Origin: an uncultured Acidimicrobiales bacterium
GTDB taxonomy: Bacteria; Actinomycetota; Acidimicrobiia; Acidimicrobiales; DATKAS01
Direction: 5' to 3'
DNA length: 64,000 nt
Assembly: GCA_963759645.1 (NCBI GenBank)
Contig: CAVXAI010000008.1
Location: 206,496-270,495 of the forward strand
The translations under genes were made by a program, and so were the position numbers. Of this stretch, positions 10,326 to 34,080 are shown piece after piece; position 1 is the first letter of the stretch, and each line of letters begins with the position of its first letter. Below the pieces are notes generated by a model, which ran no database searches, had not been told where the DNA came from, and saw only the letters and a program-made list of their open reading frames with translations.

Positions 10326-10949
10326 ATGGCGACAGAACGCACGACGACGGCCCGGACTCCGCGGGGCGAGGAGACGCGCCGGGCGCTGCTCGACGCCGCC
10401 GCCCGACTGTTCGCCGAGCACGGCTACCACGCCACCAGCGTCCCCGACATCGTGAAGGCAGCCGGCGTCGGCCACGGCACGTTCTACGAGTACTTCGGCA
10501 GCCGCCACCAGATCCTGCTCGCGCTCACGCAACAGGCCGCGGCCTCGCAGCAACGCCGACCGACGCTCACGAGCCCGACCCTCGCGGAGCGCATCCGGTC
10601 CGAGATCTTCTGGTACCTGTCCGACCACGTGGAGCACCTCACGCTGTCGAAGGTCTGGCACGAGGCGGCGAGCTTCGACGAGGAGATCGCCGCCGCCCGC
10701 CGCGTCGAGCGGGCCCGGCGGGTGGAGCGGGTCCGGAAGGGCATCGAGGCGACCGGCCCGCGGCCCGGCATCGACCCCGCGATCGCCGCGACCGCGCTCA
10801 CCGCGATGCTCGAGGAGTTCGCGCACCGGTGGTTCGTCGACGGCGCCGGCCCGGGTACGAGCGCGGCGGACGTGGTCGCGGCATCAGAGACGCTCGACGA
10901 CGATGTGGCTCGCGCGATCGGTGTCGACGGCGACAAGGGGGACACATGA
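10326..10949 (+). CDS. TetR/AcrR family transcriptional regulator
   Basis: Intact. The N-terminal HTH reads RRALLDAAARLFAEHGYHATSVPDIVKAAGVGHGTFYEYFGSRHQIL. Its stop overlaps the next start (ATGA at 10946..10949). Confidence 0.85.
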   Translation: MATERTTTARTPRGEETRRALLDAAARLFAEHGYHATSVPDIVKAAGVGHGTFYEYFGSRHQILLALTQQAAASQQRRPTLTSPTLAERIRSEIFWYLSDHVEHLTLSKVWHEAASFDEEIAAARRVERARRVERVRKGIEATGPRPGIDPAIAATALTAMLEEFAHRWFVDGAGPGTSAADVVAASETLDDDVARAIGVDGDKGDT

Positions 10950-12618
10950 CCGATCTCTTCGAGATCGTCGAGGAGGACGTGCGAGGCGTGCGGCTCCGCG
11001 TGTTCAAGCACGCTCCGCCGATCGCTGCGCGCGGTGTGGCTCGCCAGCGCCGCCCACGGCGACGCCGACTACCTCGTGTACGAGGACGAGCGGTACACGT
11101 TCGCCGACGCGCACCGCATCGTGGCGTCCATGGCCCGCACGCTCGTGTCGTACGGCGTCCGCCCGGGCGACCGGGTCGCGATCGCGATGCGCAACTAGCC
11201 CGAGTGGGCGTTCGCGTTCTGGGCGGCCATCGCCGTCGGGGCGTCGACCGTGCCGCTGAACGCCTGGTGGACCGGGCCCGAGCTCGCGTACGGCCTCAGC
11301 GACTCCGGTGCGGTGGTCCTGTTCGCCGACGAGGAGCGGGCCGAGCGGCATCGCGCCGCACCTCGGCGACACCGCCGTGCGCAACGTCGTGCTCGTGCGC
11401 ACCGAGCGCTACATGCCCAACGCGGAGTCGTTCGAGGACGCCGTCGGCGAGCTCGACTCGCCACCCCTGCCCGACGTCGACGTCGCTCCCGACGACGACG
11501 CGTCGATCATGTACACCTCGGGCACGACCGGCCGGCCGAAGGGCGCCGTCGCGACGCACCGCAACTTCGTCGCCCATCCTCATGAACGGCATGTACCGCG
11601 CTGACCGCCGCGGCCGCGCCGCGCCGCCGCCGGTCCCGCCGCGCCACCACCGCCGCCGCTCGGCGACGCTCCTCACCTTCCCGCTGTTCCACGTCGGCGG
11701 GCTGCAGTCGTTCCTGCTGCCGTACACCGCGGCGGGCGGCAAGATCGTGCTGATGTACAAGTGGGACGCGGTCGAGGCGGTCGACCTGATCGAGCGCGAG
11801 CACGTCACCGCGGTCGCCGGCGTGCCCACGACCATGTTCCAGCTGCTCGAGGTCGCCGCAGGCGCAGGGGCGGGAGCTCCCGTCGCTGGCCGGGCGTCGC
11901 TCCGGCGCGACGCTCGTGCCGCCCGAGCTCGTCCGGCGGATCGACGACCAGCTCGCGTCCCGGGCCGCGCCCGACAACGGGTACGGGCTCACCGAGACCT
12001 CGGGCGCGGCCATCGCCAACATCGGGCAAGGACTACGTCGCCCGCCCCGACAGCGTCGGCACGCCGATCTCGCCGGTGATGGAGGTGAGGATCGTCGACG
12101 CCGACGGCAACGAGGCGCCGGGCGGCGAGGTCGGCGAGATCTGGCTGCAAGGGGCCGACGGTCGTGCGGGGCTACTTCAACAACCCCGAGGCCACGGCCG
12201 CCGCCTTCAGCGACGGCTGGTTCCACACCGGCGACCTCGGCCGACTCGACGACGAGGGCTACCTCTACGTCGTCGACCGCCTGAAGGACGTCATCATCCG
12301 GGGCGGCGAGAACATCTACGCCGCCGAGGTCGAGGCCGCGCTCTACGAGCACCCCGACATCACCGAGGCCGCGATCATCGGCGTGCCCGACGAGCGCATC
12401 GGCGAGGAGGTGGGCGCGGTGGTGCGTGTGCGCGACGGCGCCGCCATCTCGCCGGACGACGTGCGCGCGCACGTCGCCGCCCGGCTCGCGTCGTTCAAGG
12501 TGCCCTCCCGCGTGTGGATCACGACCGACGAGCTGCCGCGCAACGCGGCAGGCAAGGTGCTCAAGCGCGAGCTCCGCGACGACGCTCGGCGCGACCGGAC
12601 TCACAAGCGAAAGGCTGA
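10946..12618 (+). pseudogene. AMP-dependent acyl-CoA synthetase/ligase (FadD-like), about 7 frame breaks plus an in-frame TAG at 11196..11198
   Basis: Motifs are [55 protein letters not shown] and LPRNAAGKVLKREL. The pieces lie in ORFs 10829..12079, 11250..11585, 11308..11604, 11916..12284, 11761..12618 and 12164..13006. The 3' end is uncertain. Confidence 0.8.
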
Positions 12619-16009: not shown

Positions 16010-17665
16010 ATGCGCGCTGTCGACCCGCGGCTGCTGCGGTTTGGCAGGGCTACGCGCCGCTATCTCGCGGTTTCGGTTCTGCTCGGCGCGCTGACCGCGC
16101 TGCTCGTCGTTGCACAGGCGTGGTTGCTCGCTGATGTCGTCTCGCGTGCGTTCTCCGGCGACGAGAGCACGACCGACCTGAAGGCCCCGCTGAGCCTTCT
16201 GCTCGCGGTCGTGCTCGCACGGGCCGCGGTCGCTTGGTACACCGAGGTCGCCGCGAACCGCTCGTCGAGCCGGGTGAAGTCACAGCTGCGACAGGCATTC
16301 GTCGAGAAGGTCGCCGAGACCTCGCCTTCAGCGGACCGCCAACCGGTCGGCGAGCTCGCCACGCTGGCGACACACGGCATCGATGCCCTCGACGGCTACT
16401 TCTCCCGGTATCTCCCTCAGCTCGTGCTCGCCGTCATCGTGCCCGTCACTGTCATCGTGGCCGTGGCGGCGACCGACTGGATCTCCGCGGTCACGCTCGC
16501 AGTGACCGTGCCGCTCATCCCCGTCTTCATGGCGCTGATCGGGATGCGAGTCCGCACCCGCCAGGATCGCCAGCTCCGCACGCTGCAGGTTCTGTCCGGC
16601 CACTTCCTCGACGTGGTGCGCGGGCTCGCGACGCTCAAGGTGTTCGGCCGCTCGAAGGCCCAGGTCGAGACGATCCAGGCAGTGACCGACAGCTACCGCC
16701 GTTCGACCATGTCGACGCTGCGTCTCGCGTTCCTCTCTTCCCTCGCGCTGGAGCTCCTGGCCAGCGTGGCGGTCGCGCTGGTCGCCGTGGAGGTCGGGCT
16801 GCGGCTTCTGCACGGGCACCTCGACCTGCAGAGCTCGTTGTTCGTGCTCGTGCTCGCGCCGGAGGCGTACTCTGCCGCTGCGCCTCGTCGGCACCAACTA
16901 CCACGCCAGCGCGGAAGGACTCAGCGCGGCCGACCAGATGTTCGCGGTGCTCGAACGGCCCTCACCCGCGCGAGGCGATCGCACTGACGTCCCCGATCTC
17001 GCGACGCACGACATCGAGTTCGATCGGGTGGTCGCCGGCTATCCCGACCGCGGCGGACCGGTGCTCGACGGGTGGTCGCTCACGATCGAGCCCGGTGAAG
17101 TCGTCGCGCTGGCAGGGCCGAGCGGCTGCGGCAAGTCGACGGCGTTGAAGCTGCTGCTCGGCTTCCTCGCGCCCCAGGCCGGATCGCTGCGTGTCGGCGG
17201 GGTGGACGTCGCGACGCTCGATCCAGATGCGTGGCGTGCGCACATCTCGTGGATGCCCCAGCACCCTCATCTCTTCGCAGGCACGATCGCCGAGAACTTG
17301 CGGCTCGGCCGGAGCGACGCGACCGACGACGAGCTCTGGCATGCGCTCGTCCTCGCATCACTCGCCGACCGCGTGGCCGAGCTGCCCGAGGAGCTGGAGA
17401 CCCGGCTCGGCGAGCGCGGCGCCGGACTTTCTGCGGGAGAACGGCAACGAGTCGCCCTCGCGCGGGCGTTCGTCCGCGACGCGCCGCTCGTCCTGCTCGA
17501 CGAACCCACCGCGCCACCTCGACGGCGCCGACCGAGGCACGAGTCACCGAATCGCTGAGACGGTTCGCGTCCGGACGAACCGTGGTGGTGGTCGCGCACC
17601 GGCCGGCGTTGCTCGCAATGGCCGACCGGGTCGTAGAGCTCGCACCGGCGATGGCTCTGCGATGA
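16010..17665 (+). pseudogene. cydD: Thiol-reductant ABC exporter subunit CydD, two frame breaks
   Basis: The TM domain begins MRAVDPRLLRFGRATRRYLAVSVLLG. The NBD has [17 protein letters not shown] and LVLLDEPTA. The pieces lie in ORFs 15893..16987, 16938..17558 and 17231..17665, with breaks near 16870 and 17510. Confidence 0.8.
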
Positions 17666-19409
17666 CCGACCCCCGCTCGTCGGTCGCCTCCGTCGGGGAG
17701 ACGATTCGCCTCGCCCGCCCGACGACGTTGAGGCTCGCGGTCGCCATCGGCCTCGGCGCGGCATCAGTGACGGCGGGCATCGCGCTGCTCGCCACATCGG
17801 CGTGGCTGATCTCGCGGGCATCGCAGCACCCCTCGATCGCGGACCTCGGCCTCGCGATCGTGGCGGTGCGGTTCTTCGCGCTGTCCCGCGGCCTTTTCCG
17901 CTACGGGGAGCGCTTGGTCGGCCACGACGCGGCCTTTCGCATCCTCGCCGACGTGCGCACTCGCATCTACGAACGCCTCGAACGACTGGCCCCTTGCGGG
18001 CTCGGAGCCTTCCACCGCGGCGACCTACTGACGCGGTTGGTGAGCGACGTCGACGCCTTGCAGGACGTCGCGCTGCGGGTGATGCCCGCGTGGGTCATCG
18101 CCGCCGTCGTCGGTCTGGCGACGGTCGGCGTGCTGTGGTGGCTGCTTCCCTCTGCTGCGCTGATCGTCGGGCTGCTCTTGCTCGCGTGTGCCACCGTCGT
18201 GCCCGCGGTGGCCCGGAAGCTCGCGCAACGCACCGAGGCGCGGCGCGCCCCCGCTCGAGGCGAGCTGAATGCCGCGGTGGTCGATCTCCTCGACGGCGCC
18301 CCCGACCTCGTTGCGTTCGGAGCGACCCCAACCCAGCTCAGGCGAATCGCCGCGCGCGATGCCGAGCTGACCGACCTTGCGTCGGCGTCGGCACGCACGG
18401 CGGGCGTCGGATCCGGCCTCACCGCGCTCGGAGCAGGGCTCGCGATGTGGGGCGCTGTGGCGCTCGGAGTATCAGCGGTCCACGACGGTCGCCTCGACGG
18501 CGTGATGTTGGCCGTCGTCGCGCTGATCCCACTCGCGGCGTTCGAGCTCGTCATCGGGCTTCCGACCGCGGCGCAGTCGCTCGAGGGAGCGCGTCGATCC
18601 ACGGCCCGGATCAACGCGGTGCTCGACGCCCCTCTGCCCGTGCACGAACCCGACTGTCCTGTTCCGACACGCGGGTCGAGGGAGCACTTTGTCCGAATCC
18701 GTGGGTTGCGGGCGCGCTATGGACCCGAGGCTCCGTGGGTCCTCGACGGCGTCGACCTCGACCTCGAGCCCGGGACGGCGAGTCGCCTTGGTCGGACCGA
18801 GCGGAGCTGGGAAGACGACGCTGGCGGCGGTGCTCGTGCGCTTCGTCGAGTACACGGGCTCGGTGACGCTCGACGGGACCGAGCTCCAGGCGCTCGCCGC
18901 CGACGATGTGCGGCGGATCATCGGTCTGGTCGAGCAGGACCCGCACATCTTCGACTCCACGATTCGCGAGAACCTGCGACTCGCGCGTCCCCGTGCTTCT
19001 GATGCTGAGCTGCGTGGCTGCACTCGATCGAGCCCGGTTGCTCGACTGGGTCGACACGCTGCCGCTCGGGATCGACACCGCTGTGGGCGAGCACGGCGCT
19101 CGTCTCTCCGGAGGTCAGCGCCAACGGCTGGCCCTCGCTCGCGCCGTCCTCGCCGACTTCCCGATCGTCGTGCTCGACGAGCCGGGTGAGCATCTCGACG
19201 TCGAGACCGCAGACGCGCTCATGACCGATCTGCTCTCGGCGACCGAAGGCCGCACGACACTGATCATCACCCACCGCGCTTCCGGTCTCGACGAAGTCGA
19301 CGAGATCGTCGTGCTCGATCGCGGTCGGATCGCCGAGCGGATCGGACACGAGACATCGTCCCCCGGCTTGGCTCTCGCCGGCACCGCGAACGGGAGGTCC
19401 GGGCAATGA
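17662..19409 (+). pseudogene. cydC: Thiol-reductant ABC exporter subunit CydC, two frame breaks
   Basis: An ATGA overlap joins it to cydD. The TM domain lies in ORF 17191..19002. The NBD has [17 protein letters not shown] and IVVLDEPGEHLD and lies in ORFs 18689..19189 and 18906..19409, with breaks near 18780 and 19010. Confidence 0.8.
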
Positions 19410-20827
19410 ACGTCGATCTGGCGAGGATCCAGTTCGCGTCGACGAGCATCTACCACTTCCTCTTCGTGCCCGTCACGATCGGGCTGAGCTTCCTCGTCGC
19501 GGTCCTGCAGACGATGTGGCATCGTTCGCGCGACCCGGAGCACCGTCGCCTGACGAAGTTCTTCGGCACGTTGCTCGTGATCAACGTCGCCATCGGCGTC
19601 GTCACCGGCCTCGTGCAGGAGTTCCAGTTCGGCATGAACTGGTCGGACTACTCCCGGTTCGTCGGCGACGTCTTCGGCGCTCCGCTCGCAATGGAGGGCC
19701 TCGCCGCTTTCTTCTTGGAGTCGACGTTCCTGGGACTGTGGCTGTTCGGATGGGACCGCCTCCCGCCCCGCATCCACCTCGCGTGCATCTGGGCCGTCGC
19801 CATCGGCGGAGCCCTGTCCGCGGGGTTCATCCTCGCCGCCAACTCGTGGATGCAGCACCCGGTCGGCTACACGATCGACCCCGAGACTGGTCGACCAGTG
19901 CTCAACGACATCCTCGCGGTGTTCACGAACCCAGTGTTCGTGTGGGGCGGACTGCATGTGCTCATCGCTTCGCTCGTGACCGGATCCCTCGTCATGTTGG
20001 GAGTCTCGGCGTGGCATCTCCGTCGCGACAGCGACTCGCCGGCGTTCCAGCGCACCGCGAAGGTTGCGCTCGTCGTGTTGGTGCCCGCGATCTTCATGAA
20101 CCTGATCGTGGGCAGCAAGCTCGGCGTGATCGAGACGGTGTACCAACCGATGAAGATCGCGGCCGCCGAAGCCCAGTGGACCACGTGCCAGCCCTGCTCC
20201 TTCTCGGCCTTCCAGATCGGGGGAGGAAACAACGACCCGACGCCGACGAAGATCATCCAGATCCCCCATCTCCTGTCGGTGCTCGCGGACGGCAACTGGG
20301 ATGGCCAAGTCGTCGGGCTGAGCGAGCTGCAGGACCAGTACGAGGAGCAATTCGGACCAGGCGACTACGTTCCAAACGTCTTCATCCAGTACTGGTCGAT
20401 GCGCGTGATGGCGTACCTCGGTGCGTTGGTCTTCCTGTTCTCCCTCTGGGGCGCGTGGCTCATCTACAAGCACAAGCTGGCCAGGGCGAAGTGGTTCCTA
20501 CTCGCCGCGACCTGGGCGATCATCACGCCGTTCCTCATGAACACGGCAGGATGGCTGCTCACCGAGAACGGACGTCAGCCCTGGATCGTGCAAGGGCTCA
20601 TGACGGTTCAGGACGGCGTATCGCCTTCAGTCTCTGTCACCGAGCTCTGGATCAGCCTGACCTTCTTCATCGTGCTCTACGGCCTGCTCGCCGCCGTCGA
20701 CGGTGTCCTGATGTTCCGCTTCGGGCGGCAGGCGCTCGGCGAAGGCGACGAGCACGGACATGGAGCGCCGACCTCCGAAGAGACACCGTCACCCGATGAC
20801 GAGCCGGTCCCGGCTCTCACCTACTAG
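19406..20827 (+). CDS. cydA: Cytochrome bd ubiquinol/menaquinol oxidase subunit I
   Basis: Intact 473-aa ORF. The N-terminus (DLARIQFASTSIYHFLFVPVTIGL) and the EFQFGMNWS / LAMEGLAAFFLESTFLG motifs are typical of CydA. The start overlaps the cydC stop (ATGA). Confidence 0.9.
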   Translation: MNVDLARIQFASTSIYHFLFVPVTIGLSFLVAVLQTMWHRSRDPEHRRLTKFFGTLLVINVAIGVVTGLVQEFQFGMNWSDYSRFVGDVFGAPLAMEGLAAFFLESTFLGLWLFGWDRLPPRIHLACIWAVAIGGALSAGFILAANSWMQHPVGYTIDPETGRPVLNDILAVFTNPVFVWGGLHVLIASLVTGSLVMLGVSAWHLRRDSDSPAFQRTAKVALVVLVPAIFMNLIVGSKLGVIETVYQPMKIAAAEAQWTTCQPCSFSAFQIGGGNNDPTPTKIIQIPHLLSVLADGNWDGQVVGLSELQDQYEEQFGPGDYVPNVFIQYWSMRVMAYLGALVFLFSLWGAWLIYKHKLARAKWFLLAATWAIITPFLMNTAGWLLTENGRQPWIVQGLMTVQDGVSPSVSVTELWISLTFFIVLYGLLAAVDGVLMFRFGRQALGEGDEHGHGAPTSEETPSPDDEPVPALTY

Positions 20828-20836
20828 GGGCCGATC

Positions 20837-21850
20837 ATGGGATTGCAGATCGTCTGGTTCGTGATCATCACGATCTTCTGGGTGGGGTTCTTCGTGCTCG
20901 AGGGCTTCGACTTCGGCGTCGGCGCCTTGCACACGTTCGTCGGCAAGACCAACCTCGAACGGCGTGTCGCCATCAACACGATCGGCCCGTTCTGGGACGG
21001 CAACGAGGTGTGGCTGATCGTCGCAGGGGGCGCGACGTTCGCGGCGTTCCCCGATTGGTACGCGTCGTGGTTCTCCGCGCTCTACCTCGCGCTCGTGCTC
21101 GTGCTGTTCGCGCTGATCGTCCGAGGTGTCTCCTTCGAGTACCGCGGCAGGATCGACCAGCCGAGATGGCGAACCACGTGGAGCCTCGCTCTCACCGTCG
21201 GCAGCATCATGCTGCCAATTCTGCTGGGCATCGGGCTCGGTGACCTGCTCTACGGATTGCCCATCGACTCGAACGGCGACTACACCGGCTCGTTCATCGA
21301 CCTGTTGACGCCCTATGGCGTCTGGGTGGGCGTCACGCTGCTCTCGCTCACCCTGCTGCACGGCTCGATCTTCCTCACCCTGCGCACGACGGGCATCGTG
21401 CACGATCGGGCCCGGCGCATGGCAGGGCCGTTCGCCCTGATCGCCATCGCGACGGTGGCCGTGTTCACGTTTTGGACTCAGGTGCTGTCCGACCAAGGCG
21501 ACATCCCCGGTCCGTTCGAGCTCGTCCCGCTGCTCGCGATCGTCGGCGCCGCCTGGGCGGTGCGCGACGGCCACGACGGTTGGGCCTTCACCGCGACGTC
21601 GATCGCGATCGGGTTGAGCGTCGCGTCGATCTTCATCGCGCTCTACCCCAACGTCATGATCTCGAGCACCGATGAGGCGAACAACCTCACGGTGGCCAAC
21701 GCCGCGTCGGGGAGCTACGCCCTCAAGGTGATGACGGTCGTCGCCGTCGTGCTGTTCCCCCTCGTGCTCATCTACCAAGCCTGGAACTTCCACGTGTTCC
21801 GCCACCGCATCGCCAGCCCCAAGGCGACCGCGGACGACATCGCCAACTGA
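20837..21850 (+). CDS. cydB: Cytochrome bd oxidase subunit II
   Basis: Intact 337-aa polytopic membrane ORF lying 9 nt after cydA. It contains WFVIITIFWVGFFVLEGFDFGVG, typical of CydB. Confidence 0.85.
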   Translation: MGLQIVWFVIITIFWVGFFVLEGFDFGVGALHTFVGKTNLERRVAINTIGPFWDGNEVWLIVAGGATFAAFPDWYASWFSALYLALVLVLFALIVRGVSFEYRGRIDQPRWRTTWSLALTVGSIMLPILLGIGLGDLLYGLPIDSNGDYTGSFIDLLTPYGVWVGVTLLSLTLLHGSIFLTLRTTGIVHDRARRMAGPFALIAIATVAVFTFWTQVLSDQGDIPGPFELVPLLAIVGAAWAVRDGHDGWAFTATSIAIGLSVASIFIALYPNVMISSTDEANNLTVANAASGSYALKVMTVVAVVLFPLVLIYQAWNFHVFRHRIASPKATADDIAN

Positions 21851-21866
21851 CGATCGGAGCAAGAAC

Positions 21867-23223
21867 GTGTCAGCAAAGAAGGAACCAAAGAAGGCAGACA
21901 AGAAGGAGACGAAGCCATCGGTGGTGATCGTTGGGGGTGGCTTCGCGGGCGTCGGATGCGCGAAGAAGCTCGCCGACCACGACATCCCCGTCACGTTGCT
22001 CGACCGCCACAACTACCAGCAGTTCCAGCCACTGCTCTATCAAGTGGCCACCGCCGAGCTCGCGACGACCGACGTCGCCCGGCCCCTCCGAGCGATCTTC
22101 GCCAAGGACAAGTCGGTCACCATGAAGCAGCTCGACGTCACCTCGGTCGATCCCGAGACGCGCACCGTGACGACCTCCGACGGTCAGACGTTCACCGGCG
22201 ACTACGTGGTCATCGCGGCCGGCACTCAACCCAACTTCTTCCACACCCCGGGCGCCGACAAGTTCGCGTTCCCTCTGTACTCGGTGCAGGACGCGACGAA
22301 GCTGCGGGCGCAGGTCTTCGAGGTGTTCGAGGAGGCGGCCGACAACCCGGCTCGCATCGACCAGGGGGCACTCAACTTCGTGATCGTCGGCGCCGGACCG
22401 ACGGGTGTCGAGACGGCCGGCGCGCTGGCAGACCTCGTGAACCAGGTGATGCCGAAGCGCTTCCATACGATCGCCGTCGACCGCGCCCAGATCTACCTCG
22501 TGGACCTCGGCCAGGTCGTGCTGCGCGCGTTCTCGGAGAAGGCTCACGCCTACGCCGCGGAGCGGCTGCAACGCAACGGCGTGAAGCTGCTGCTCGGCCT
22601 CGGCGTCAAGGAGGTGCGCAAGGGCAAGGTCATCCTCAGCGATGACACCGAGATCCTCACCCGCACGGTCATCTGGGGCGGCGGCATCCAGGCGTCGCCG
22701 ATCGCCGCGCATGTCGGGCTGCCCACGGGACGCGGTGGGCGACTCGCGACGCGAGCCCGACCTCACCGTCGAGGGGCACGAGCGCGTCTACGTGATCGGT
22801 GACATCGCGGCGATCCCCGATCCCGACGGCAACGACCTGCCCCAGCTCGGCTCGGTGGCACTGCAGTCGGGGCACTGGGCGGCCGAGAACATCCTCGCCG
22901 ACATCGACGGCAAGCCCCGCAAGCCCTTCCACTACAAGGACAAGGGCATCATGGCGATGATCGGCGACGGCGCCGCGATCGCCGAGATGGGCAAGAACCA
23001 CCACGAGCTCCATGGCCATGTCGCCTTCGCCGCGTGGCTCGGCGTGCATGCGTGGCTCATGAGCGGGGTCCGCACTCGCGTCGACGCCTTCGTCGCGTGG
23101 GCCAGCGACTTCGTCGGTGCGACCCGGGCGAGCTCGATCATCGTCGACAGCGACAAGGCGCGGATCGACTGGGGTGACGAGGAAGGATCGGACGAGCCGC
23201 TCAGCCACGAGCCGCCGAGCTGA
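21867..23223 (+). pseudogene. ndh: Type II NADH dehydrogenase (NDH-2), one frame break
   Basis: The GTG start has GGAG upstream. It has two dinucleotide folds, VVIVGGGFAGVG and FVIVGAGPTGVE, and a C-terminal VYVIGDIA. The protein runs from ORF 21867..22802 into ORF 22642..23223, with the break near 22740. Confidence 0.85.
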
Positions 23224-23232
23224 GACGCCGGG

Positions 23233-24831
23233 CTAGGCCGAGATCGCCGCCGCTCCGGAATCGATCCGGTGGTACCCATCGATGAGGGCGACCTCTTCAT
23301 CGTGCTTCGGGAACAGGAAGAACACGATCACGGCGCCGAGGACGATCGCAATGCAGCCCGCAAGGTACGCCCAGTCCTGCCCGTCGACGAACGATGACTT
23401 TGCCGCCGCGGTGATCTGGCTCGCGTACTGCGGGTACTGCTGGGCAGTCGCCTCGGCGCTGGCGAACGACTTCGTGAGCTGCGCCTGCACGCTGTCCGTG
23501 ACGTCACTCGCGTCCGGTGAGCTCGCGATGGCCGCGGAGATGGCAGCTGCGTATCCCGCGGTCAACAGCGCGCCGAAGATCGACTGCATGATCGCCCCGC
23601 CGAGATCGCGCTGGAGGTCGGCCGTGCCCGATGCCATCCCGGCACGCGACACCGGCACCGAGCTGGTGAGCGAACGCGACGCCGGGGTACCCGCGAACCC
23701 GACTCCGGCGCCGATGAACGCGTAGCCCAGGCCGACTTGCCAGTAGGGACTGTGGTCGCTCCACAGCACGAGCATCGTCGCGAAGCCGAGGAAGCAGAAG
23801 ACATAGCCGCAAAGCAAGGTGAATCGGGCACCTCGCGCCTCGACGAACTTGGCCGACCGCGGCGCGATGAGCACCATGAACACGGCCGCGGGAAGGATCG
23901 ACGCACCGGCCTCGAGACTCGAATAGCCGAGCACGTTTTGCAGGAACTGCTGGCCGACGAACATCGCTCCCATGAGCGAGCCGAACACGATGATGCCCGC
24001 GATCGCCGCGACCCAGAACGTTCGTCGGCCCGCGATCTTCAGGTCGTACAGGGGCACCTCAGCCGACCGCTGACGAAGAAAGAACGCGATGCCGGCGCCG
24101 ATCGCGATCGCGGCCAGGGTGAGCACGAGCGCCGTCTCGTTCGGCACCGGCGCGAAGTTGATCGCGAGCACCATCGAGCCGACGAAGACCACGGAGAGCA
24201 CCCCTCCGAGGTTGTCGACGGACTCGGTCGTCTCGTTGACGTGGCTCGGCACGAGCACGAGTGCAAGGACGAACGCCACCGCCGCGAGCGGCAGGGTCAC
24301 GAGGAACACCGAACCCCACCAGAAGTGCTGGAGCATGAAGCCGGAGACGAGGGGTCCGAGTGCCGCGATCGCGCCTCCGAGCGCAGACCACAACGCGATC
24401 GACTTCGTGCGCGCCGGCCCCGACCACAACGCCGTGATCAGGGCGAGCGTCGTCGGGTACGCCATGCCGGCGGAGAGCCCGCCGACGATGCGGGCGAGGA
24501 TGAGCACCTCGATGCTGCCCGCCCACGCCGCGACAATGCACGCGGGAATCGAGAGACCGATGCCGAGGAGCAGCATCATCTTCCGGCCATAGCGATCACC
24601 CAGCGCGCCCAGCCACAAGACCGAGGCCGCCAGACCGAGCGAGTACCCGACGGCGACGAGGTTCAGCTCCGTCTGCGATGCGTCGAACGCGATGCCGATG
24701 TCGGGAAGCGCCACGTTCGCGACAGCGAGGTTCAGGTTCGCGACCGCCGCGACCAGGATGAGCGCAAGCAACACCATCCCGCTGCGCGCTGGAGCAGTTG
24801 ACACTCGTGTAGGAACAGCCGTGTCGGTCAT
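23233..24831 (-). CDS. MFS transporter, DHA2 (EmrB/QacA-like, 14-TMS) drug:H+ antiporter family
   Basis: Intact ORF 23233..24903. The preferred start is the internal MTDTAVPTRV... at 24831. It carries MFS motif A (GALGDRYGRKMMLL) and many hydrophobic segments. Confidence 0.8.
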   Translation of the reverse strand: MTDTAVPTRVSTAPARSGMVLLALILVAAVANLNLAVANVALPDIGIAFDASQTELNLVAVGYSLGLAASVLWLGALGDRYGRKMMLLLGIGLSIPACIVAAWAGSIEVLILARIVGGLSAGMAYPTTLALITALWSGPARTKSIALWSALGGAIAALGPLVSGFMLQHFWWGSVFLVTLPLAAVAFVLALVLVPSHVNETTESVDNLGGVLSVVFVGSMVLAINFAPVPNETALVLTLAAIAIGAGIAFFLRQRSAEVPLYDLKIAGRRTFWVAAIAGIIVFGSLMGAMFVGQQFLQNVLGYSSLEAGASILPAAVFMVLIAPRSAKFVEARGARFTLLCGYVFCFLGFATMLVLWSDHSPYWQVGLGYAFIGAGVGFAGTPASRSLTSSVPVSRAGMASGTADLQRDLGGAIMQSIFGALLTAGYAAAISAAIASSPDASDVTDSVQAQLTKSFASAEATAQQYPQYASQITAAAKSSFVDGQDWAYLAGCIAIVLGAVIVFFLFPKHDEEVALIDGYHRIDSGAAAISA

Positions 24832-24899
24832 CCGAGCGGACCCTATGCGGGACTCGTTCCACCTGCATCCCCCGGTTTGGGTGACGCATCGCTCGACGA

Positions 24900-25088
24900 T
24901 CACTTCCTGGGTCGTTCAGCCCAAATCGCATCCGCGTCCTGCAGCCCGCCGTCCCCGCATCCGACCGGAACAACGGTGGCGGAGAAGGTCGACACCGATC
25001 GGCGGACGGCGGACTGGTCGACGAGCTTGACGACACGCTCGACGAGGTGGGCGATGTCGTCGGCGGGCTGCTCGGCAGCTCGGGTCAC
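24900..25088 (-). CDS. Hypothetical small protein (62 codons); only the first ~28 codons look coding
   Basis: The GTG start overlaps the stop of the upstream sORF (GTGA). TRAAEQPADDIAHLVERVVKLVDQSAVR uses almost only G/C-ending codons, and codon quality decays afterwards. No family was recognised. Confidence 0.3.
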   Translation of the reverse strand: MTRAAEQPADDIAHLVERVVKLVDQSAVRRSVSTFSATVVPVGCGDGGLQDADAIWAERPRK

Positions 25089-25192
25089 GGGTCGGGCGGC
25101 TCCGGTTCGAGCGGGCCGGGTGGCGGCGGATCGAGTGGGCCCGGGGGCGGAGGATCGAGCGGGCCGGGTGGCGGCGGAGGGTTGCTCGACAT
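25085..25192 (-). CDS. Putative 35-codon polyproline-repeat sORF: MSSNPPPPPGPLDPPPPGPLDPPPPGPLEPEPPDP
   Basis: This is my own minus-strand translation; the ORF is below the ORF-track length cutoff. It is built from three 24-bp tandem units. The GAGG sits too close to the ATG to be a good SD. Coding status is unproven. Confidence 0.3.
   Translation of the reverse strand: MSSNPPPPPGPLDPPPPGPLDPPPPGPLEPEPPDP
25104..25180. repeat. Three tandem 24-bp units (outer two identical over 23 nt: TCGAGCGGGCCGGGTGGCGGCGG; middle unit degenerate)
   Basis: Units start at 25107, 25131 and 25155, giving a period of 24 bp (8 codons of PPPPGPLD on the minus strand). Confidence 0.85.
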
Positions 25193-25235
25193 CCTCGGGC
25201 TCTGAGTACGACCCTACGCGTCAAGCCGAAGTGGG

Positions 25236-25847
25236 TCAGCGGTTCCTCGGCTCGCGCCACATGTTCCACATGGGCGGGCAGTCGTCGTCGACCCGCAGCA
25301 CTTCGATGACACCGAAGCCGTGACGCTCGTAGAGCTTTTGGTTGCGCTCGCTCGTAGCGACGAGGAATGCTGCGACGCCATCGCGGTCGCACGCAGTGAG
25401 CATCGGTGCCAGCACCGCCGACCCGAGACCGCGGCCCTGACGGCTGGCCTCGACACCGACGAACTGAAGATACGCGGCGGGATCGTGAGGATGGTGGCTG
25501 TCGATCGTTGCCACGAGGGCCTCGCAGCGCGACACGTCCGGCCCGCACAGCTCGAGCAACGCGGTCCCGAACTGCTCTGCCTCTGCCTCGGACGGCACGG
25601 ACACACCGGCCGGAGCCCACATGGCGACGCTCGACTCGGTGACGAAAGTCGCGTCGTGCGGGATGAAGGCGTCCGCGAACACCTCGAAGAACGGCTGCAA
25701 CAGCTTCACTCGCCGATCCGCCGCGGGGATCATCCACGAGAAGATCGGATCGTCGTTGAACGCGCTGCTCAGCACGGCGGCGACGTGTGAGCGCTGCGCC
25801 AGGGTCGCTCGTTGGATGACAGGCGCGTCGGAAGAGAGAGTTGACAT
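25236..25847 (-). CDS. GNAT family N-acetyltransferase
   Basis: Intact 203-aa ORF. The acetyl-CoA motif A is VEASRQGRGLGSAVL, with the typical C-terminal YERHGF. Confidence 0.8.
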   Translation of the reverse strand: MSTLSSDAPVIQRATLAQRSHVAAVLSSAFNDDPIFSWMIPAADRRVKLLQPFFEVFADAFIPHDATFVTESSVAMWAPAGVSVPSEAEAEQFGTALLELCGPDVSRCEALVATIDSHHPHDPAAYLQFVGVEASRQGRGLGSAVLAPMLTACDRDGVAAFLVATSERNQKLYERHGFGVIEVLRVDDDCPPMWNMWREPRNR

Positions 25848-25889
25848 GGCATGTGACCTTTCTGGTTCTGGCTCGGGAGGGATTGAGCG

Positions 25890-27305
25890 TCAGGTCGCCT
25901 GGGCGAACTGACTCCGGTAGGTCGCGGCGGCCTTCACATAGCGCTGCGCGCTCGGAAGATCGGCGCGGGCGTTGGCGATCTCGGCGAAGCGAGTGAGCGT
26001 GTACACGCTCGATTCGCGAGTCGCGAGACGCTCGTTGACCAGTGCGGTCGCCAGATCGAGCTCGCGCGCACGGATCGCCGAAGTGAGCAACGTGCGCTGC
26101 AGCGCGTCCCGCTGTGCATGGGAGCCGCCGAACACCTGGAAGGTCGCACGAATCGGAAGGAGCTCGTCGATGACCTGACGGTCGTTGCCTTCCGCGAAGG
26201 CCACCACCGCACGAGAGGCCGGCAGACCGACCTCTGTGGTCATCGCCAGATTGCTCGGGCTCGCGGCGCCGCCAGCTGTCGCGTAGCGCTCGAGCCGATC
26301 GACCACGGCGCGTGCCTCAGTGAGACGACCGGCGCCGGTCAGCGCCATCACGGCGTGCATGTCGTTGAACACGTACCACGGCTCGTCGACGGTGCGGCTC
26401 GCCCACGCGTCGGCCAGTGGGCCGAAGCGTCCACCGGTGTCCTCACCTTCGAGGTACAGGCGCCACAGCAATGCGCTCGCGTCGAGCATCTCGAGCGGAA
26501 CGCCCACCGACTCGCTGTTGTGCACGCGAGCGTCGTAGATGGCGAGGGCGTCGTTGAGCTTGCCCGCCTCCAAGAAGTAGAGCGCGAGGTGCCACCAGTT
26601 GTGCACGGTGAACAAGTTGCCATCGCCCCAATCGGCCTCGCGGGAGTGCAGGAAGCGGATGCCGTCCGCAACTCGGCCTTGCATCTCGTAGACGTGGACC
26701 ACGGCGTGGATCGCCCACACGTCGTCGGGATGCGCCTCGACGGCGGCGAGCCCGTGCGCCTCGGCTGCCTCGTAGTGGCCAGACTCCTCGAGACCAAACG
26801 CGAACATGCCTCGAACGAACCCGTAGTGCGGCGACTCGGGGTCGATGCTGCCCATCGAACGAGCGATGCGGTCGCGGAGGTTCCGGGCGTCGCCCCTGAA
26901 GAAATCGAGCAGGTGACCGGAGAGGAGCGCGAGCAGGTCGGTCGGCCAGGCGATCAGCAGCTGGTCGAGCTGGCGTGCCGCGCCATGCCAGTCGCCCGCG
27001 AGCCACTTCTGGATCGCGGCCAGATGGGCGGCCTCGCGTGGGTTCAGCTCGAGCCCGGCGAGCGCTTCGGCGGACTCGCGCGCCCCGGGCAGGTCGACCG
27101 TGTCGGTCGAGCTCAGCGAGAGGTAGGCGGCCATCGCGTGGCCCATCGGGAACTGCGGTTCCTCGGTGACGAGCGCTGTCGCGACGTCGATGACGTCAGG
27201 GTGGTACCGGAGGTACCGGTCGATGGCCAGGTCGTATTGGTCAACCCCATGTCCGCTCGACACGGGGTTGCCATAGGCGTCGGTGCGGTTTGCGATGAGT
27301 GTCAT
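25890..27305 (-). CDS. Tetratricopeptide-repeat protein, TTC38-like family (function unknown)
   Basis: The ORF 25890..27428 is intact. The preferred start is MTLIANRTDAYGNPV at 27305. It is helical-repeat rich (...GHYEAAEAHGLAAVEAHPDDVWAIHAVVHVYEMQGR...NWWHLALYFLEAGK...), which I recall as the TTC38 pattern. Confidence 0.55.
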   Translation of the reverse strand: MTLIANRTDAYGNPVSSGHGVDQYDLAIDRYLRYHPDVIDVATALVTEEPQFPMGHAMAAYLSLSSTDTVDLPGARESAEALAGLELNPREAAHLAAIQKWLAGDWHGAARQLDQLLIAWPTDLLALLSGHLLDFFRGDARNLRDRIARSMGSIDPESPHYGFVRGMFAFGLEESGHYEAAEAHGLAAVEAHPDDVWAIHAVVHVYEMQGRVADGIRFLHSREADWGDGNLFTVHNWWHLALYFLEAGKLNDALAIYDARVHNSESVGVPLEMLDASALLWRLYLEGEDTGGRFGPLADAWASRTVDEPWYVFNDMHAVMALTGAGRLTEARAVVDRLERYATAGGAASPSNLAMTTEVGLPASRAVVAFAEGNDRQVIDELLPIRATFQVFGGSHAQRDALQRTLLTSAIRARELDLATALVNERLATRESSVYTLTRFAEIANARADLPSAQRYVKAAATYRSQFAQAT

Positions 27306-27381
27306 GCGTACACCATGAACGAGGCCTCTCGCGTGCCCCTCGCGTCCGCTCGTGCCTGCTCGCGCGTCGCGAGCGGAGCTG

Positions 27382-30267
27382 TCAGGGCCCGAGCTCAGAC
27401 GCGGCCAGCGCCGCGGCGGCCTCGACATCGAGTCCAGCGCCTTCGAGCGCGGGCGACGGTGAAGTCGTCACCCAGCTCGACCTCGAGCCGCCCCGCCAGC
27501 TCGGCGAGCAGGAGCGCATCGTCGCCGAACACCTCGTGCCCGGAACCCGGGGCAGTGACGGCACCCAGCAGCACCGCAGCGGCGCGCGGCTTCCCGAGTC
27601 GATGGAGCAACTGCGCGATCGAGCGGAGCAGGGTCCAGAGCACCGAATACTCGCCCGACCGGCGCCACCACGGCAGCAGCCACCGGTAGGCCGCGACCGC
27701 GGCGTCGACCTCACCATGGCGGGCGTCGATCGATGCCGCCAGGGTGCCCGCGATCCCGGTGACGAACCACGCCCCCGTGATCTCGGCCTCGTCGAGGGCG
27801 CGTTGCGCGCGCCGCCGGGCCTCGAGCGGATCCTCCGTTCATGATCGCCTCGCCCGCGCCGTGCCATGCGTAGGCCCCGTGGGGGGTCGGACCCTCGGGG
27901 ATGTTCGCAATCAGCTCCTCGACGAGCCGCCCGGTATCGGGAGACCCGGAGTACGTCGCGGACAGGACACGATCCGTCATGGTCATCAGACGTTGCACGG
28001 GCCTGCTGTCCGCGTCGTGCGTCTCCAATGAACGGGCCAGCCATTCCTGGGCTTCGTCGAGCCGTCCGGTCACCATCGCGTGCACGCCGATGAGGTTCGC
28101 GACCGTCAGCGCGAGGGGCACGCCGAGTTCCTCGGTGACAGTCGAGCGCCTCATTTCCGAGTCGCTCCATCGTGGCGAGATCACCCCGCTTCCACGCCCC
28201 CAGGCCGGCGCTCGCGAGCGCATTCGGGGTCAGGGGATGGCCAATGGCGCGGCCGAGGGCGGCCGCCTCCTCGCCCCACCCGAGGACCTCGGGCTTCATG
28301 CGCATGAAGCCGTAGTCGTAGAGCGCGTCCACCATCTGCAAGTCGCTGTCGGCGTCACCCGTCTCCACGAGGAACCGGTGGGCGGCGCGCAGCTCGATCA
28401 GCAGGGCGTCGAGCTGCGCGAGGGCCGCGGCCGAATCGGTCGGGATACGCACCGCGCACTCGGTGACCATCTCCAGGGCCCGAGCGGCGTGCCGCTTCCT
28501 CAGCTCGTCGATGCGTCCGGTCTCGGCGAGGCGCTCGAGCGCGAACTCCTTCAGCGTCTCGAGCAGCACATAGCGACCATCGGCGGTCCGCTGCACGAGC
28601 GAGCGCTCGACGAGCGCGATGAGCGTCGGACTCGTCCTCGAGTGCGGCGACGCTGATGCCGTCGGCCGTCGAGAACGGTCCAGAGAACACGCCCAACGAG
28701 TCGAACGCTCGCTGCATCTCGTCGTCGAGCAGGTCGTACGACCACGCGACGGCCGCGGAGAGCGATCGCTGACGGGGCGCGGTGCGCATCCCGCTGGTCA
28801 GCAGACGGAAACGATGGTCGAGGCCAGCCGCGACTTCGGTGAGCTCCATCGCCTGCAGCCGTGCCGCGGCGAGCTCGATGGCGAGCGGAAGACCGTCGAG
28901 TCGCCGGCAGATCTCGGCGGCGACGGCCAGGTTGGTGTCATCGAGGCTGAAGTCCGGGCGCACGGCGCTCGCCCGATCAGCGAAGAGCTGCAGCGCGGGG
29001 TCCGCCACCGATGCCATCTCGGCCACGGTGAACGGGCTCACGGGTGAGAGGTGCTCGCCTTCGACCGCGAGACGCTCTCTGCTCGTCACGAGCACACGCA
29101 CATCAGCGCATCGGCGCAGCACTGCTTCGGCGAGGCCCGCGGCGGCGTCCAGCACGTGTTCGCAGTTGTCGAGCACCAGCAGCCCGTGATCGGGCCCGAG
29201 CACCTCGGTGATGCGACCTCGGAGAGACACGCCGGCGCGTTCCTCGACGCCGAGGGTCTCGGCGACGACGACCTCCACCGTGTCGACTGATGCCGACGCG
29301 AGCTCGCAGAGCCACACACGCGTCACCGGTTCCCTCGACCTGCCGGCCCACCTCCAGCGCGACACGGGTCTTGCCGACGCCCCCCGGACCGATCAGCGTC
29401 ACGAGCCGCTGCTCGTGCAGTCGCGCAATCACTCGGCTGACGAGCTCCGCCCGACCGATGAAGCTGCTCGGCGGCGTCGGCACCGTGGGCACCGCGCCTA
29501 CCGCGGCTCCGCGGTCGGACGGGTCGCGCTCGAGTCAGCGAGGTCCGCCCTCGAGCACCTCCAGGTGCAGAGCCCGCAGCTCGGGCGACGGTTCGATGCC
29601 CAGCTCTTCGGCGAGCCGCCGGCGGAAGTCGTCGAACACGCGGGAGGCCTCCGCAGTCCGACCCTCCGCGGACAGCGCTCGCATGAGGAGCTCGGCGGGC
29701 CGTTCGCGCAACGGGTGCTGGCCCGCGAACGCGATGAGGTCGGGGAGCACGTCGCGATCCGTCCCGATCTGCATCAGTGCGACGAGGCGCTCCTCGCGGG
29801 CGAGCGTCTCGAGCTCACGCAGTCGCGACACTTCGATGCGAGCGGCATCAAGATCGGCCAGCTCGTCGTAGGGCTCGCCCCGCCACCACGAGAGCGCGTC
29901 GTCGAGCATCTCGACCGCGCGACTGCGGTTCGTCGGCGCGGATGCTCATCGCCTCCGCCACGACTCTGCCGAAGTTGTGCGCGTCGACGTCGTCTGGGTC
30001 GGCGTTCAGCCGGTAGCCGGCGCCGGCCGTTTCGATCGCGCCCTCGGGCAGGATGCGGCGAAGCCGAAAGACGTGGGTCTGCAGCGCCGCAGCCTGGTCG
30101 GCGGGCAGTCGATCGGGCCACAGCAGGTCGACCAGGCGGTCGGACGCGACCACCGAGCCCCGCTCGAGCACGAGGGCGGCGAGCAGTCGCCGCTGCCGCT
30201 CGCCCGGTGGCCCGGTCTCGTTCCCGGCCTCCGCGATCCGCAGCGGTCCGAGGACCCGGTACCGCAC
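27382..30267 (-). pseudogene. Large SARP/AfsR-type regulator (OmpR-type wHTH + BTAD + NB-ARC ATPase + TPR-like C-terminus), about 6 frame/stop disruptions
   Basis: The GTG at 30267 has AAGGAG 7 nt upstream. Domains read MRYRVLGPLRI...LQTHVFRLRRILP (wHTH), ALSWWRGEPYDELADLD...LEVLEGG (BTAD), FIGRAELV...LIGPGGVGKTRVALEV and LLVLDNCEHVLD (NB-ARC), then helical repeats. The pieces lie in ORFs 29848.., 29535.., 29103.., 28355.., 27382.., 27711.. and 27395... Confidence 0.75.
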
Positions 30268-30330
30268 GTCACCACTCCTTCGACCTGGTTGAAGTCACGC
30301 AGCGTAAGGGACCAGGGCGGGACGCCCCGG

Positions 30331-30359
30331 CGGATACAGCGCGATGCCCCATCGGATAC
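30331..30359. promoter_or_regulatory. Two direct CGGATAC heptamers spaced exactly 22 bp apart in the SARP/hydrolase divergent intergenic region
   Basis: The heptamers lie at 30331..30337 and 30353..30359. SARPs are known to bind heptameric direct repeats at 11/22-bp phasing. A single 7-mer pair could be chance. Confidence 0.25.
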
Positions 30360-30381
30360 CGGCTGTTCTACGGTCGCGCGC

Positions 30382-31327
30382 GTGGCGCTGGAGAGCTACC
30401 TCGCAGAGGAAGTGGCACTCGACTGCGCGGAGGGCCTGATGTCTCGTCGGGAGGCACTCCGCCGGCTCGCTTTGCTCGGTCTGAGTGCGACCGCGGCGAC
30501 GACACTGCTCGCCGCGTGCGGCGACGACTCGGGCGACGACGACGGGTGCGGCGGCCACGACCGCCTCCGTCGCCTCTTCGATCCCCGCCGACACGGCTGC
30601 GGCGACGACCGCCGCGCCCGCCACGACTGCCTCCGCCAGCGAGGCGCCGACGGCCGAGGAGATCCGCTTCGCCGGACCCCGGGGTGAGCTGATCGGCGTT
30701 CTCGCGACCGCGCCAGATCCGAAGGGCGCCGTGCTGGTGATCCACGAGAACCGCGGGCTCACGCCCCACATCCGGACCATCCCGGGTCGCCTCGCGGCTA
30801 GCGGCTACACGGCGCTCGCGATCGACCTCCTCTCCGAGGAGGGCGGCACCGCGAGCCTGCCGTCAGAAGGCGACGCCACCGCCGCGCTCGGTGCCGCGTC
30901 GCAAGAGCGGCTCGTCGAAGACATGCGGGCGGGCATCGACGAGCTCGAGCGCCGCGCGCCAGGAGCGGGACTCGCGATGATCGGCTTCTGCTTCGGCGGA
31001 GGCATGACGTGGCTGATGCTCGCCAAAGGTGAGCCTCGACTCGGGGCGGCCGTCCCGTTCTATGGGCCGGCCCCGGCCGAGCCCGACTTCAGCGGGTCGA
31101 GCCAGGCTGCGGTGCTCGGCATCTATGCCGGAAATGACGACAGGGTGAACGCCAGCCAACCCGCGGCACGTGCCGCGCTCGAGGCTGCGGGGATGACCCA
31201 CGAGCTCCAGACGTTCGAAGGCGTCGACCACGCGTTCTTCAACGACACGGGGCCTCGGTACAACGCTGAGGCGGCCACTCAGGCCTACGACGCGATGATC
31301 GGCTGGTTCGACGAGCACCTGAGCTGA
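30382..31327 (+). pseudogene. Dienelactone hydrolase family protein with Tat/lipoprotein-like leader, one frame break
   Basis: The N-terminus is YLAEEVALDCAEGLMSRREALRRLALLGLSATAATTLLAAC (ORF 29977..30687). The DLH core (VIHENRGL, GFCFGG nucleophile elbow, VDHAFFND) lies in ORF 30485..31327. The break is near 30540. The alternative start is the ATG at 30439. Confidence 0.75.
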
Positions 31328-31379
31328 CCCGGGCGCGCGCCCGACGGCGACACGCGAAGGGCCGCGCGAGAGTGAGCAG

Positions 31380-34080
<2,701 letters not shown>

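Follow-up and report, generated by a model that had tools for sequence, protein, structure and literature searches.

Whether six closely spaced reading frames on one strand make up a single functional module is the question raised by a locus in the DNA of an uncultured Acidimicrobiales bacterium (assembly GCA_963759645.1, contig CAVXAI010000008.1, positions 206,496 to 270,495 of the forward strand). The 64,000-bp stretch that was analysed, referred to as the window, has a GC content of 68%, and the six open reading frames (ORFs) occupy its minus strand between positions 23233 and 30267. The original prediction had described them as a SARP/NB-ARC regulator, a TTC38-like protein with tetratricopeptide repeats (TPR), a GNAT acetyltransferase, a short polyproline ORF, a second short ORF and a DHA2 exporter of the major facilitator superfamily (MFS), and had suggested that this is the layout of a small modified or exported peptide or of a self-resistance system, with a pathway-type activator.

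The reading preferred here, to which a probability of about 0.6 is given, is that the locus consists of a SARP with a two-gene target, a wrecked HD-GYP gene and an independent pump, and that the breaks in the SARP gene are most likely sequencing indels. Briefly, the AfsR-type SARP/STAND activator (27382-30267) probably switches on a promoter located just past its own stop codon, from which the genes for the TTC38-like protein and a GNAT similar to puromycin N-acetyltransferase would be transcribed together, on an mRNA with little or no leader. The proposed operator is made up of three to four GCGAG(N5-7) direct repeats spaced about one helical turn apart, and the most economical guess for the pair is that it modifies or detoxifies an amine-bearing small molecule. 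Between the GNAT gene and the pump, a convergent HD-GYP gene has been wrecked by an internal deletion of ~1.6 kb, which leaves the short ORFs as meaningless antisense frames, and the position of the pump beside the other genes would follow from the collinearity of the entire block (GH63 ... ndh, cydBA, cydDC) in these genomes.

Gene order and conservation in relatives

The relatives are labelled L001-L090 and comprise loci or contigs that were obtained from a scan of a genome collection with the TPR protein (80 loci), from homologue searches and from contig look-ups; L083, L089 and L090 are Illumina contigs. The nearest relatives, identified as tblastn matches of the TPR protein, are uncultured Acidimicrobiales. 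When the ORF coordinates were re-derived, six co-directional minus-strand ORFs separated by 76, 42, 43, -4 and 68 bp were recovered as described, these values holding with the TPR start placed at a conserved ATG (27305) and the MFS start at 24831. Domain searches bore out four of the labels, namely an AfsR-type SARP/STAND protein, a TTC38-family TPR protein, a GNAT and a DHA2-like MFS transporter.

The gene set of the window is repeated in L081, which is 95% identical to it at the nucleotide level over 18.9 kb, and L082 and L086 (83-89% identical) carry in addition an HD-GYP gene with assembly frameshifts. The Illumina contig L089 (TPR 91% identical) contains the TPR and GNAT genes and a continuous ORF for the HD-GYP C-terminus, and L090 (GNAT 79%) contains the 3' end of the SARP gene, the TPR and GNAT genes and an intact HD-GYP gene (505 aa). 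L083 (70-76%) has an intact SARP of 956 aa and a partly deleted HD-GYP gene, L085 (TPR identity ~71%) has a SARP with an internal deletion that joins residues 3-84 to 865-942, and L042 (~75%) is without SARP and GNAT and has a syntenic MFS gene at 78%. The order SARP-TPR-GNAT and the short gaps are common to the window, L081, L082, L086 and L083 (80 and 43 bp in the last), with L090 and L089 providing partial views of it, and a SARP, TTC38-like and GNAT unit that is conserved in one small clade is plausible. Conservation of the order of TPR, GNAT, short ORFs and MFS in other genomes had been named as a check; SARP, TPR and GNAT were kept in order, and the short ORFs were not. An opposite-strand HD-GYP gene lies between GNAT and MFS in relatives, and the idea of a co-directional six-gene unit is not supported.

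Repeat array upstream of the TTC38-like gene

Between the stop codon of the SARP gene and the TPR ATG, the 76-bp spacer contains an array of GCGAG direct repeats (27328-27363, minus strand), which is proposed as the SARP operator. Copies are located in the window at -27, -38 and -58 from the ATG, with a copy at -48 spoiled by a 2-bp difference. The corresponding positions are -27, -38, -48 and -60 in L081, L082 and L086, -27, -38, -48 and -59 in L090, and -27, -38 and -48 in L083; in L085, where the SARP is deleted, only the copy at -38 is found, and in L042, which has no SARP, only one at -37. In the alignment of SARP-bearing genomes the CGCGAG hexamers are invariant and the spacers between them variable, and the positions of the repeats are fixed through 70% nucleotide identity. 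A GCGAG triple at exact 11-bp spacing was found nowhere on either strand of 2.77 Mb of fetched sequence, and the motif is therefore not a common repeat, this strict form also missing the array itself, in which the real spacing is 11/10/11-12 bp and the third copy of the window carries its 2-bp difference. No GCGAG array was present upstream of the MFS gene or in the spacer between the SARP gene and the divergent dienelactone hydrolase (DLH) gene.

A -10-like hexamer, CATGGT (CAGGGT in relatives), is located at 27312-27317 on the minus strand, -12 to -7 from the TPR ATG, and marks a putative promoter; such a position implies a TPR transcript that would be leaderless or near-leaderless. If the heptamer is read as GCGAGNN, 8 nt separate the end of the last repeat from this hexamer, which places the array over the -35 position in the manner of classical SARP promoters, where 8 nt is the usual distance from the repeats to the -10 element. 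SARP operators are heptameric direct repeats in units of 11 bp (sometimes 10 bp) that overlap the -35 element, lie on one face of the helix, have regulator-specific sequences and occur in two to three or more copies (PMC10972967, PMC3367932). The phylogenetic footprint of the array and its loss together with the SARP suggest that it is probably the SARP operator upstream of the TTC38-like gene. The SARP had been predicted to be a dedicated activator of its downstream neighbours, and the conserved array before the TTC38-like gene, which decays in genomes without the SARP, makes it look so.

A regulator is also found next to TTC38-like genes outside the clade. Six further Acidimicrobiia loci have a gene for a large STAND or SARP regulator immediately before the TTC38-like gene; the one in L056 is a true SARP, and those of L008 and L009 have no recognisable DNA-binding domain. 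The conserved motif CCTCAC-N3-GTGAGG-N5-CCTCAC was found upstream of TTC38-like genes in several other Acidimicrobiia loci (positions L007 1342; L008 7917 and 5143; L009 7897; L016 7913; L056 ~7480). In L008 it is also present in the divergent promoter between the gene for a 45%-identical GNAT and the STAND gene, and the GCGAG(G) unit of the window is similar to its half-site, G(T/C)GAGG. This motif gives weak independent support to an association of regulator, TTC38-like protein and GNAT.

Several observations weigh against the preferred reading, and the alternative that they favour is that there is no functional unit, the SARP, TTC38-like, GNAT and MFS genes being adjacent only by common ancestry and the GCGAG repeats being incidental or belonging to another regulator. 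A block of ~19 kb is collinear in all close relatives (CinA, luciferase-like, BON-CBS, GH63, the genes discussed here, ndh, cydBA and cydDC), and since the whole neighbourhood is collinear, synteny alone is no proof of a functional link. Genes of the set have been lost individually, with L042 lacking SARP and GNAT and L085 carrying the SARP deletion. The GCGAG-N6-GCGAG pair occurs twice in the window against 2.1 expected, which is the chance level, and the case for the array rests on about four independent lineages with the SARP and two without it. The -10-like hexamers are weak, and a generic promoter and terminator scan returned no promoters and one terminator-like site, which lies inside the MFS gene. 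Beyond the clade the TTC38-like gene is flanked by other genes, and no GNAT or MFS match lies within ~8 kb (tblastn) at 73 of the 80 more distant loci; exceptions among the 80 included L042 (the syntenic MFS), L008 (GNAT) and L017, L022 and L023 (weak MFS matches of 24-29% identity). Two distant GNAT homologues sit in unrelated contexts, among housekeeping genes. This alternative does not account for repeats that keep their positions through 70% identity with variable spacers between them and decay where the SARP is gone, for the regulator genes upstream of TTC38-like genes in the six further loci, or for L008, in which the GNAT and TTC38-like genes share a promoter motif and flank a STAND gene. 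Adjacency without function is thus considered doubtful, and the SARP with its adjacent two-gene target is retained.

The SARP gene and its frame breaks

The gene for the AfsR-type SARP/STAND regulator (27382-30267, minus strand) is spread over six frame segments in the window, with Pfam matches to Trans_reg_C (5.9e-9) and BTAD (3.6e-31). Its domain order is an OmpR-type winged helix-turn-helix, BTAD, an NB-ARC-like ATPase with the Walker A sequence GPGGVGKT, and a helical C-terminal part. The winged helix-turn-helix and BTAD domains were found both in the fragments of the window and in the intact orthologue of L083; NB-ARC scored 24.3 bits in L083 (cut-off 23.5) and weakly, 16.2 bits, in the window fragment. 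The L083 orthologue also matched AfsR in the PDB (8k60) over residues 1-572 with an E-value of 3.8e-32, and EmbR over residues 3-247. The NCBIfam equivalog model for AfsR gave only 60-71 bits against a cut-off of 1430, and the SARP is therefore not an AfsR orthologue.

The original prediction had called the regulator heavily frame-disrupted and the other five ORFs intact. The frame breaks are indeed in the sequence, caused by indels near 29924, 29538/29501, 29324, 28626, 28142/28127, 27837/27796 and 27448; compared with the intact L083 orthologue these amount to five net frame changes, together with a further indel close to the SARP C-terminus and a compensated indel pair that places a TGA in frame at 29535-29537. 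Genuine decay of the gene did not find support, and the disruptions are quite likely indel errors of long-read assembly, given the type of the indels, the other genes that are affected, the absence of shared sites in L081 and the third-position bias of substitutions. Almost all indels that distinguish the window from L081 are single-base, and 54 of the 57 are not multiples of three. Frame changes were also observed in the GH63 (1), ndh (1), cydD (2) and cydC (~2) genes of the window; in the luciferase-like, BON-CBS, GH63, TPR, MFS, ndh, cydD and cydC genes of L081; in the GNAT, MFS, ndh, cydB, cydA and cydD genes of L082; and in the TPR, ndh and GH63 genes of L042. The Illumina contig L083 had no frame changes in the compared genes. 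None of the frame-change sites of the window SARP is common to L081, each one being an indel difference between the two contigs, and residues 1-712 of the L081 SARP lie in a single frame. With frames corrected, the SARP substitutions between window and L081 number 13/11/72 at codon positions 1/2/3 (75% at the third), compared with 2/5/23 for TPR and 10/7/63 for MFS, and the SARP has therefore been under purifying selection. The overall pattern of indels looks like systematic long-read basecalling error, and any 'pseudogene' in the window should therefore be distrusted.

The alternative that this strain carries the SARP gene as a true pseudogene, with the module being dismantled as in L085 and L042, has some points in its favour. 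The five net frame changes and the further indels fall within 2.9 kb, and the SARP has the highest indel density of the genes in the tally of window against L081 (~5/kb against 1-4/kb). It has also been truly lost in related lineages, by internal deletion in L085 and altogether in L042, and the third GCGAG repeat of the window carries the 2-bp difference. Some real, very recent decay of the SARP is possible. The excess of frame changes is modest, however (5 of 11 events, binomial p=0.018), and a comparable cluster occurs in the TTC38-like gene of L081, which has four frame segments in 1.4 kb (p=0.013, taking 4 of 13 events). Sites not shared with a contig that is 95% identical, substitutions that fall mostly at third positions and identical 1-bp lesions in cydC, cydD and ndh all speak against inactivation, which is judged unlikely, and the SARP is treated below as a gene whose breaks are probably assembly errors.

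Additional features of these sequences were recorded. Single-base frame changes break the GH63-like, ndh, cydC and cydD genes within window positions 16034-23217 and 31380-34059, and many indels in the window and its sister contigs adjoin GATC-like contexts. The promoter region of the SARP gene itself contains two copies of a 22-bp direct repeat, GTATCCGNNGGGGCNTCNCGC, at 30317-30359 in minus reading, ~50-90 nt upstream of the SARP GTG and upstream of a TACGCT -10-like box. ATCCGA-type repeats and a TACGNT box recur upstream of the SARP gene in L081, L083 and L085, and this region may be a candidate operator for control of the SARP gene.

The HD-GYP remnant and the short ORFs

The interval between the GNAT and MFS genes is occupied by the remnant of an HD-GYP gene (24961-25205, plus strand), in which ~20 5' codons (ending ...TGTTVAEKVDTDRRTAD) are joined in another reading frame to the final ~65 codons (...GLVDELDDTLDEVGDVVGGLLGSSGHGSGGSGSSGPGGGGSSGPGGGGSSGPGGGGGLLDILGL, then stop), with a Gly/Ser-rich tail that ends in GGGGGLLDILGL and the stop codon. 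About 1.6 kb has been lost, window positions 25014-25095 corresponding to 4251-5919 of L082, and the same deletion is found in L081. The intact gene of L090 (505 aa, HD_5 5e-39, motif HHERYDGTGYP) lies on the opposite strand between GNAT and the contig end, convergent with GNAT, and in L089 a continuous opposite-strand ORF, truncated by the contig, has a Gly/Ser-rich tail ending in ...GGSGSSGPGGGGGLLDILGL and a stop codon. HD and HD_5 domains were found in the L082 copy, which like that of L086 carries the assembly frameshifts; an HD_5 or HD domain and the HHExxDGxGYP signature are thus seen in relatives, and the gene of the window is not intact. In L083 the gene is truncated to its first ~225 codons (10539-11251), in L042 a stub remains (9353-9433), and in L085 no HD-GYP remnant was detected. 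By sequence comparison, the HD-GYP gene between GNAT and MFS has been degraded differently in different lineages. Its strand was assigned from L089 and L090, Illumina contigs in which the ORF runs without interruption; a codon-phase test on the tail against L082 gave 21/22/24 substitutions for the three positions, the low-complexity repeat aligning poorly.

Both short ORFs are spurious. The polyproline ORF (25085-25192, minus strand) is the antisense of a 24-bp tandem repeat (25088-25178; 3.8 copies, coinciding with the ORF) that encodes the Gly/Ser tail, and the second short ORF (24900-25088, minus strand) runs antisense across the HD-GYP deletion junction, its C-terminal half being antisense to the HD-GYP N-terminus (TGTTVAEKVDTDRRTAD). 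Neither matches Pfam or NCBIfam, and L083, L085, L042 and L090 lack both. In L090 the HD-GYP tail is short and has no repeats, and in the 95%-identical L081 the ATG of the polyproline ORF reads CTG and the frame is interrupted by a 1-bp indel. Of the 57 indels that separate the window from L081, eleven lie within 24783-25216, a region of ~430 bp, at ~25/kb compared with 1-5/kb in genes, a density expected for non-coding DNA. An Rfam scan of 22000-31500 gave only a chance miRNA match (E 0.8), with no riboswitch or leader RNA.

On this evidence the short ORFs are not genes, and their proposed use as precursor or leader peptides fails with them, the region being unconserved and lying inside another gene. 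The idea that the short ORFs encode a small peptide which a six-gene module would produce, acetylate and export under SARP control draws on the close, co-directional spacing of the ORFs, on the joint presence of SARP, GNAT and exporter and on the polyproline ORF with ATG that is also found in L082 and L089. It is set against the HD-GYP gene on the other strand, intact in L090 and continuous in L089, the absence of the ORF from four relatives and its broken form in L081, the indel density of the region, the poor geometry for a ribosome-binding site, GAGG directly abutting the ATG, and the lack of any RiPP, NRPS or PKS enzyme within ~10 kb of the SARP gene, a lack that the original prediction had itself pointed out and that was borne out. 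Modification of a peptide by the GNAT also finds no echo in the distant TTC38-like loci, mostly without GNAT or MFS, or in the housekeeping contexts of the distant GNAT homologues, and such a module is very improbable. Polyproline tracts can stall ribosomes, and the short ORFs precede the pump gene on its own strand, but leader peptides that attenuate or induce the pump are hardly credible with ORFs that are not conserved, a second ORF that stops 68 bp before the MFS ATG, the absence of a conserved structure, nothing relevant in Rfam, and a pump promoter box that is kept in genomes without the short ORFs or with a full opposite-strand gene.

The efflux pump

The transporter gene (23233-24831, minus strand) is intact and encodes a DHA2-like MFS efflux protein of 532 aa (MFS_1 1.9e-45). 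The NCBIfam models for SmvA, LfrA and EmrB/DHA2 matched it from end to end with 177-181 bits, all below their cut-offs (for example 177.4 bits against 230.2 for TIGR00711, the DHA2 model), and the pump is therefore not an orthologue of any named pump. A crude Kyte-Doolittle scan returned 15 overlapping peaks, roughly 12-14 segments, the C-terminal one at 489-507. A -10-like TAGGGT (24840-24845, minus strand), 8 nt upstream of the MFS ATG, is a candidate pump promoter. A TANNNT box (TAGGGT, TACATT or TAAGTT) is found 8-9 nt before the MFS ATG in six genomes (window, L081, L082, L083, L085 and L042), and it is kept both where the HD-GYP gene intervenes and in L042, where SARP and GNAT are absent. 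Because of this conservation, the pump gene is best regarded as a separate transcription unit, probably a leaderless one, and its predicted membership in the module is not upheld. The MFS gene was also considered as a SARP target and was ruled out by the lack of an upstream repeat array and by its own conserved -10 box.

The TTC38-like protein and the acetyltransferase

The TTC38-like gene (25890-27305, minus strand) is intact and encodes an all-helical TPR protein of 471 aa with a weak TPR_14 match. Homologues that are 42-48% identical are named 'Tetratricopeptide repeat protein 38' in UniRef, and membership in the family was judged by these names, neither Pfam nor NCBIfam having a family hidden Markov model. 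The family spans bacteria to humans, and more than 3000 homologues of the TPR protein were found at E <= 1e-10. An AlphaFold2 model (pLDDT 92, pTM 0.91) has 24 helices and forms an all-helical solenoid. A PDB fold search with this model returned only generic TPR solenoids, at TM-scores of 0.55 or lower, and a PDB sequence search with the protein gave no match. Among 29 homologues (59-90% identity), ~90 columns are invariant, including nine His and many Asp, Glu and Trp, and the motifs HAVVHVYEMQG, HNWWHLAL and GGSHAQRD are conserved; these residues may point to an enzymatic or ligand-binding site rather than a passive scaffold. The original prediction had noted that TTC38 has no established function in bacteria, and in the searched literature none was found, nor was a function for any member of the family.

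The GNAT gene (25236-25847, minus strand), which starts 42 bp after the TPR gene, encodes an acetyltransferase of 203 aa with Pfam matches to Acetyltransf_1/7/10. It aligns along its full length with puromycin N-acetyltransferase (PDB 7k09, E 4.6e-20, residues 9-200 with 8-199) and also with 2qec, an uncharacterised HPA2-like acetyltransferase.

In the wider set of 80 loci, clustering of the neighbours showed that the TTC38-like gene is most often accompanied by a PIG-L family de-N-acetylase, which occurs in 15 loci representing three or more lineages (L012, L017, L022, L023, L027, L028, L031, L036, L038, L040, L041, L053, L056, L058 and L068). The PIG-L gene lies mostly directly downstream on the same strand, usually at ~100 bp, and its product has the AHPDDE motif (Pfam 1.3e-21 in L036). 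Because the family recurs beside enzymes that add or remove acetyl groups, namely the GNAT described here, that of L008 and PIG-L in the 15 loci, it is conceivable, at the level of speculation, that the pair is a ligand-inducible system for modification of small molecules and that TTC38 proteins act on N-acetylated amine metabolites, either as enzymes or as obligate partners. If this were true, the pair would be the first genomic handle on the role of the TTC38 family.

Neighbouring genes

The neighbours of the SARP gene are GH63, DLH, BON-CBS, luciferase-like, ndh and cydABDC genes, and no biosynthetic gene cluster that would place the SARP in secondary metabolism lies within ~10 kb of it. 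The DLH gene (30485-31327, plus strand; Pfam DLH 4.3e-40) is divergent from the SARP gene and is present at this position in the window and L081 and absent from it in L083, L085 and L042. Because only these two contigs carry it, it is taken from the sequence comparison as a recent insertion between GH63 and SARP, a lineage-specific neighbour outside the conserved set.

Comparison with known systems

Both of the exotic-looking features of the locus dissolve, the peptide ORFs into antisense frames and the decayed regulator into a probable assembly artefact, with the general caution that short ORFs and 'pseudogenes' in DNA of 68% GC and in long-read metagenome assemblies need comparative checks. 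What remains is a predicted set of SARP regulator, operator and target that lies outside a biosynthetic cluster and belongs to a little-studied group, the Acidimicrobiia. There is no sign of a peptide or biosynthetic function, and nothing points to a new kind of system: the locus is read as a SARP activator with a predicted operator of direct repeats and a small target next to it. Only the function of the TTC38-family cargo makes it of interest, and if the regulatory link is true, induction through it could be used to search for the family's ligand and activity.

The closest model for the regulator is AfsR of Streptomyces coelicolor, which acts on the afsS promoter and consists of an OmpR-type DNA-binding domain, BTAD, NB-ARC and TPR. 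The domain order is alike, and direct repeats lie by the -10 element of the target promoter in both cases (PMC10972967), SARP binding being predicted here. The present system differs in its Acidimicrobiales host, in its repeat unit, which is GCGAG and not the afsS box, and in its presumed target, which is the adjacent TTC38-like/GNAT pair and not the gene of a small regulatory peptide. Cluster-situated SARPs such as ActII-ORF4, DnrI and PimR have operators of heptameric direct repeats (PMC3367932, PMC10972967), and the predicted operator here is alike in its three to four heptamer-type repeats, in units of 10-12 bp, over the -35 position of the gene that follows directly; the SARP of the window differs from them in the lack of a surrounding biosynthetic cluster and in the heptamer sequence of its predicted operator.

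The pump is compared with the DHA2 drug:H+ antiporters of 14 transmembrane segments (EmrB, LfrA, SmvA, QacA), its best NCBIfam matches being end to end with the SmvA, LfrA and EmrB/DHA2 models, and it differs from them in scores below the curated cut-offs. The puromycin N-acetyltransferase of Streptomyces alboniger, whose pur cluster also encodes an efflux pump, is alike in its full-length alignment with the GNAT. The similarity is moderate, however, and the locus has no aminonucleoside pathway, its pump is probably promoted separately, and in relatives an opposite-strand gene parts the pump from the GNAT. The TTC38 family, made up of eukaryotic TTC38 and bacterial homologues, is matched through the names of the 42-48% identical homologues and the predicted all-helical solenoid, and the invariant His, Asp and Glu residues suggest that its member at this locus is more than a passive scaffold.

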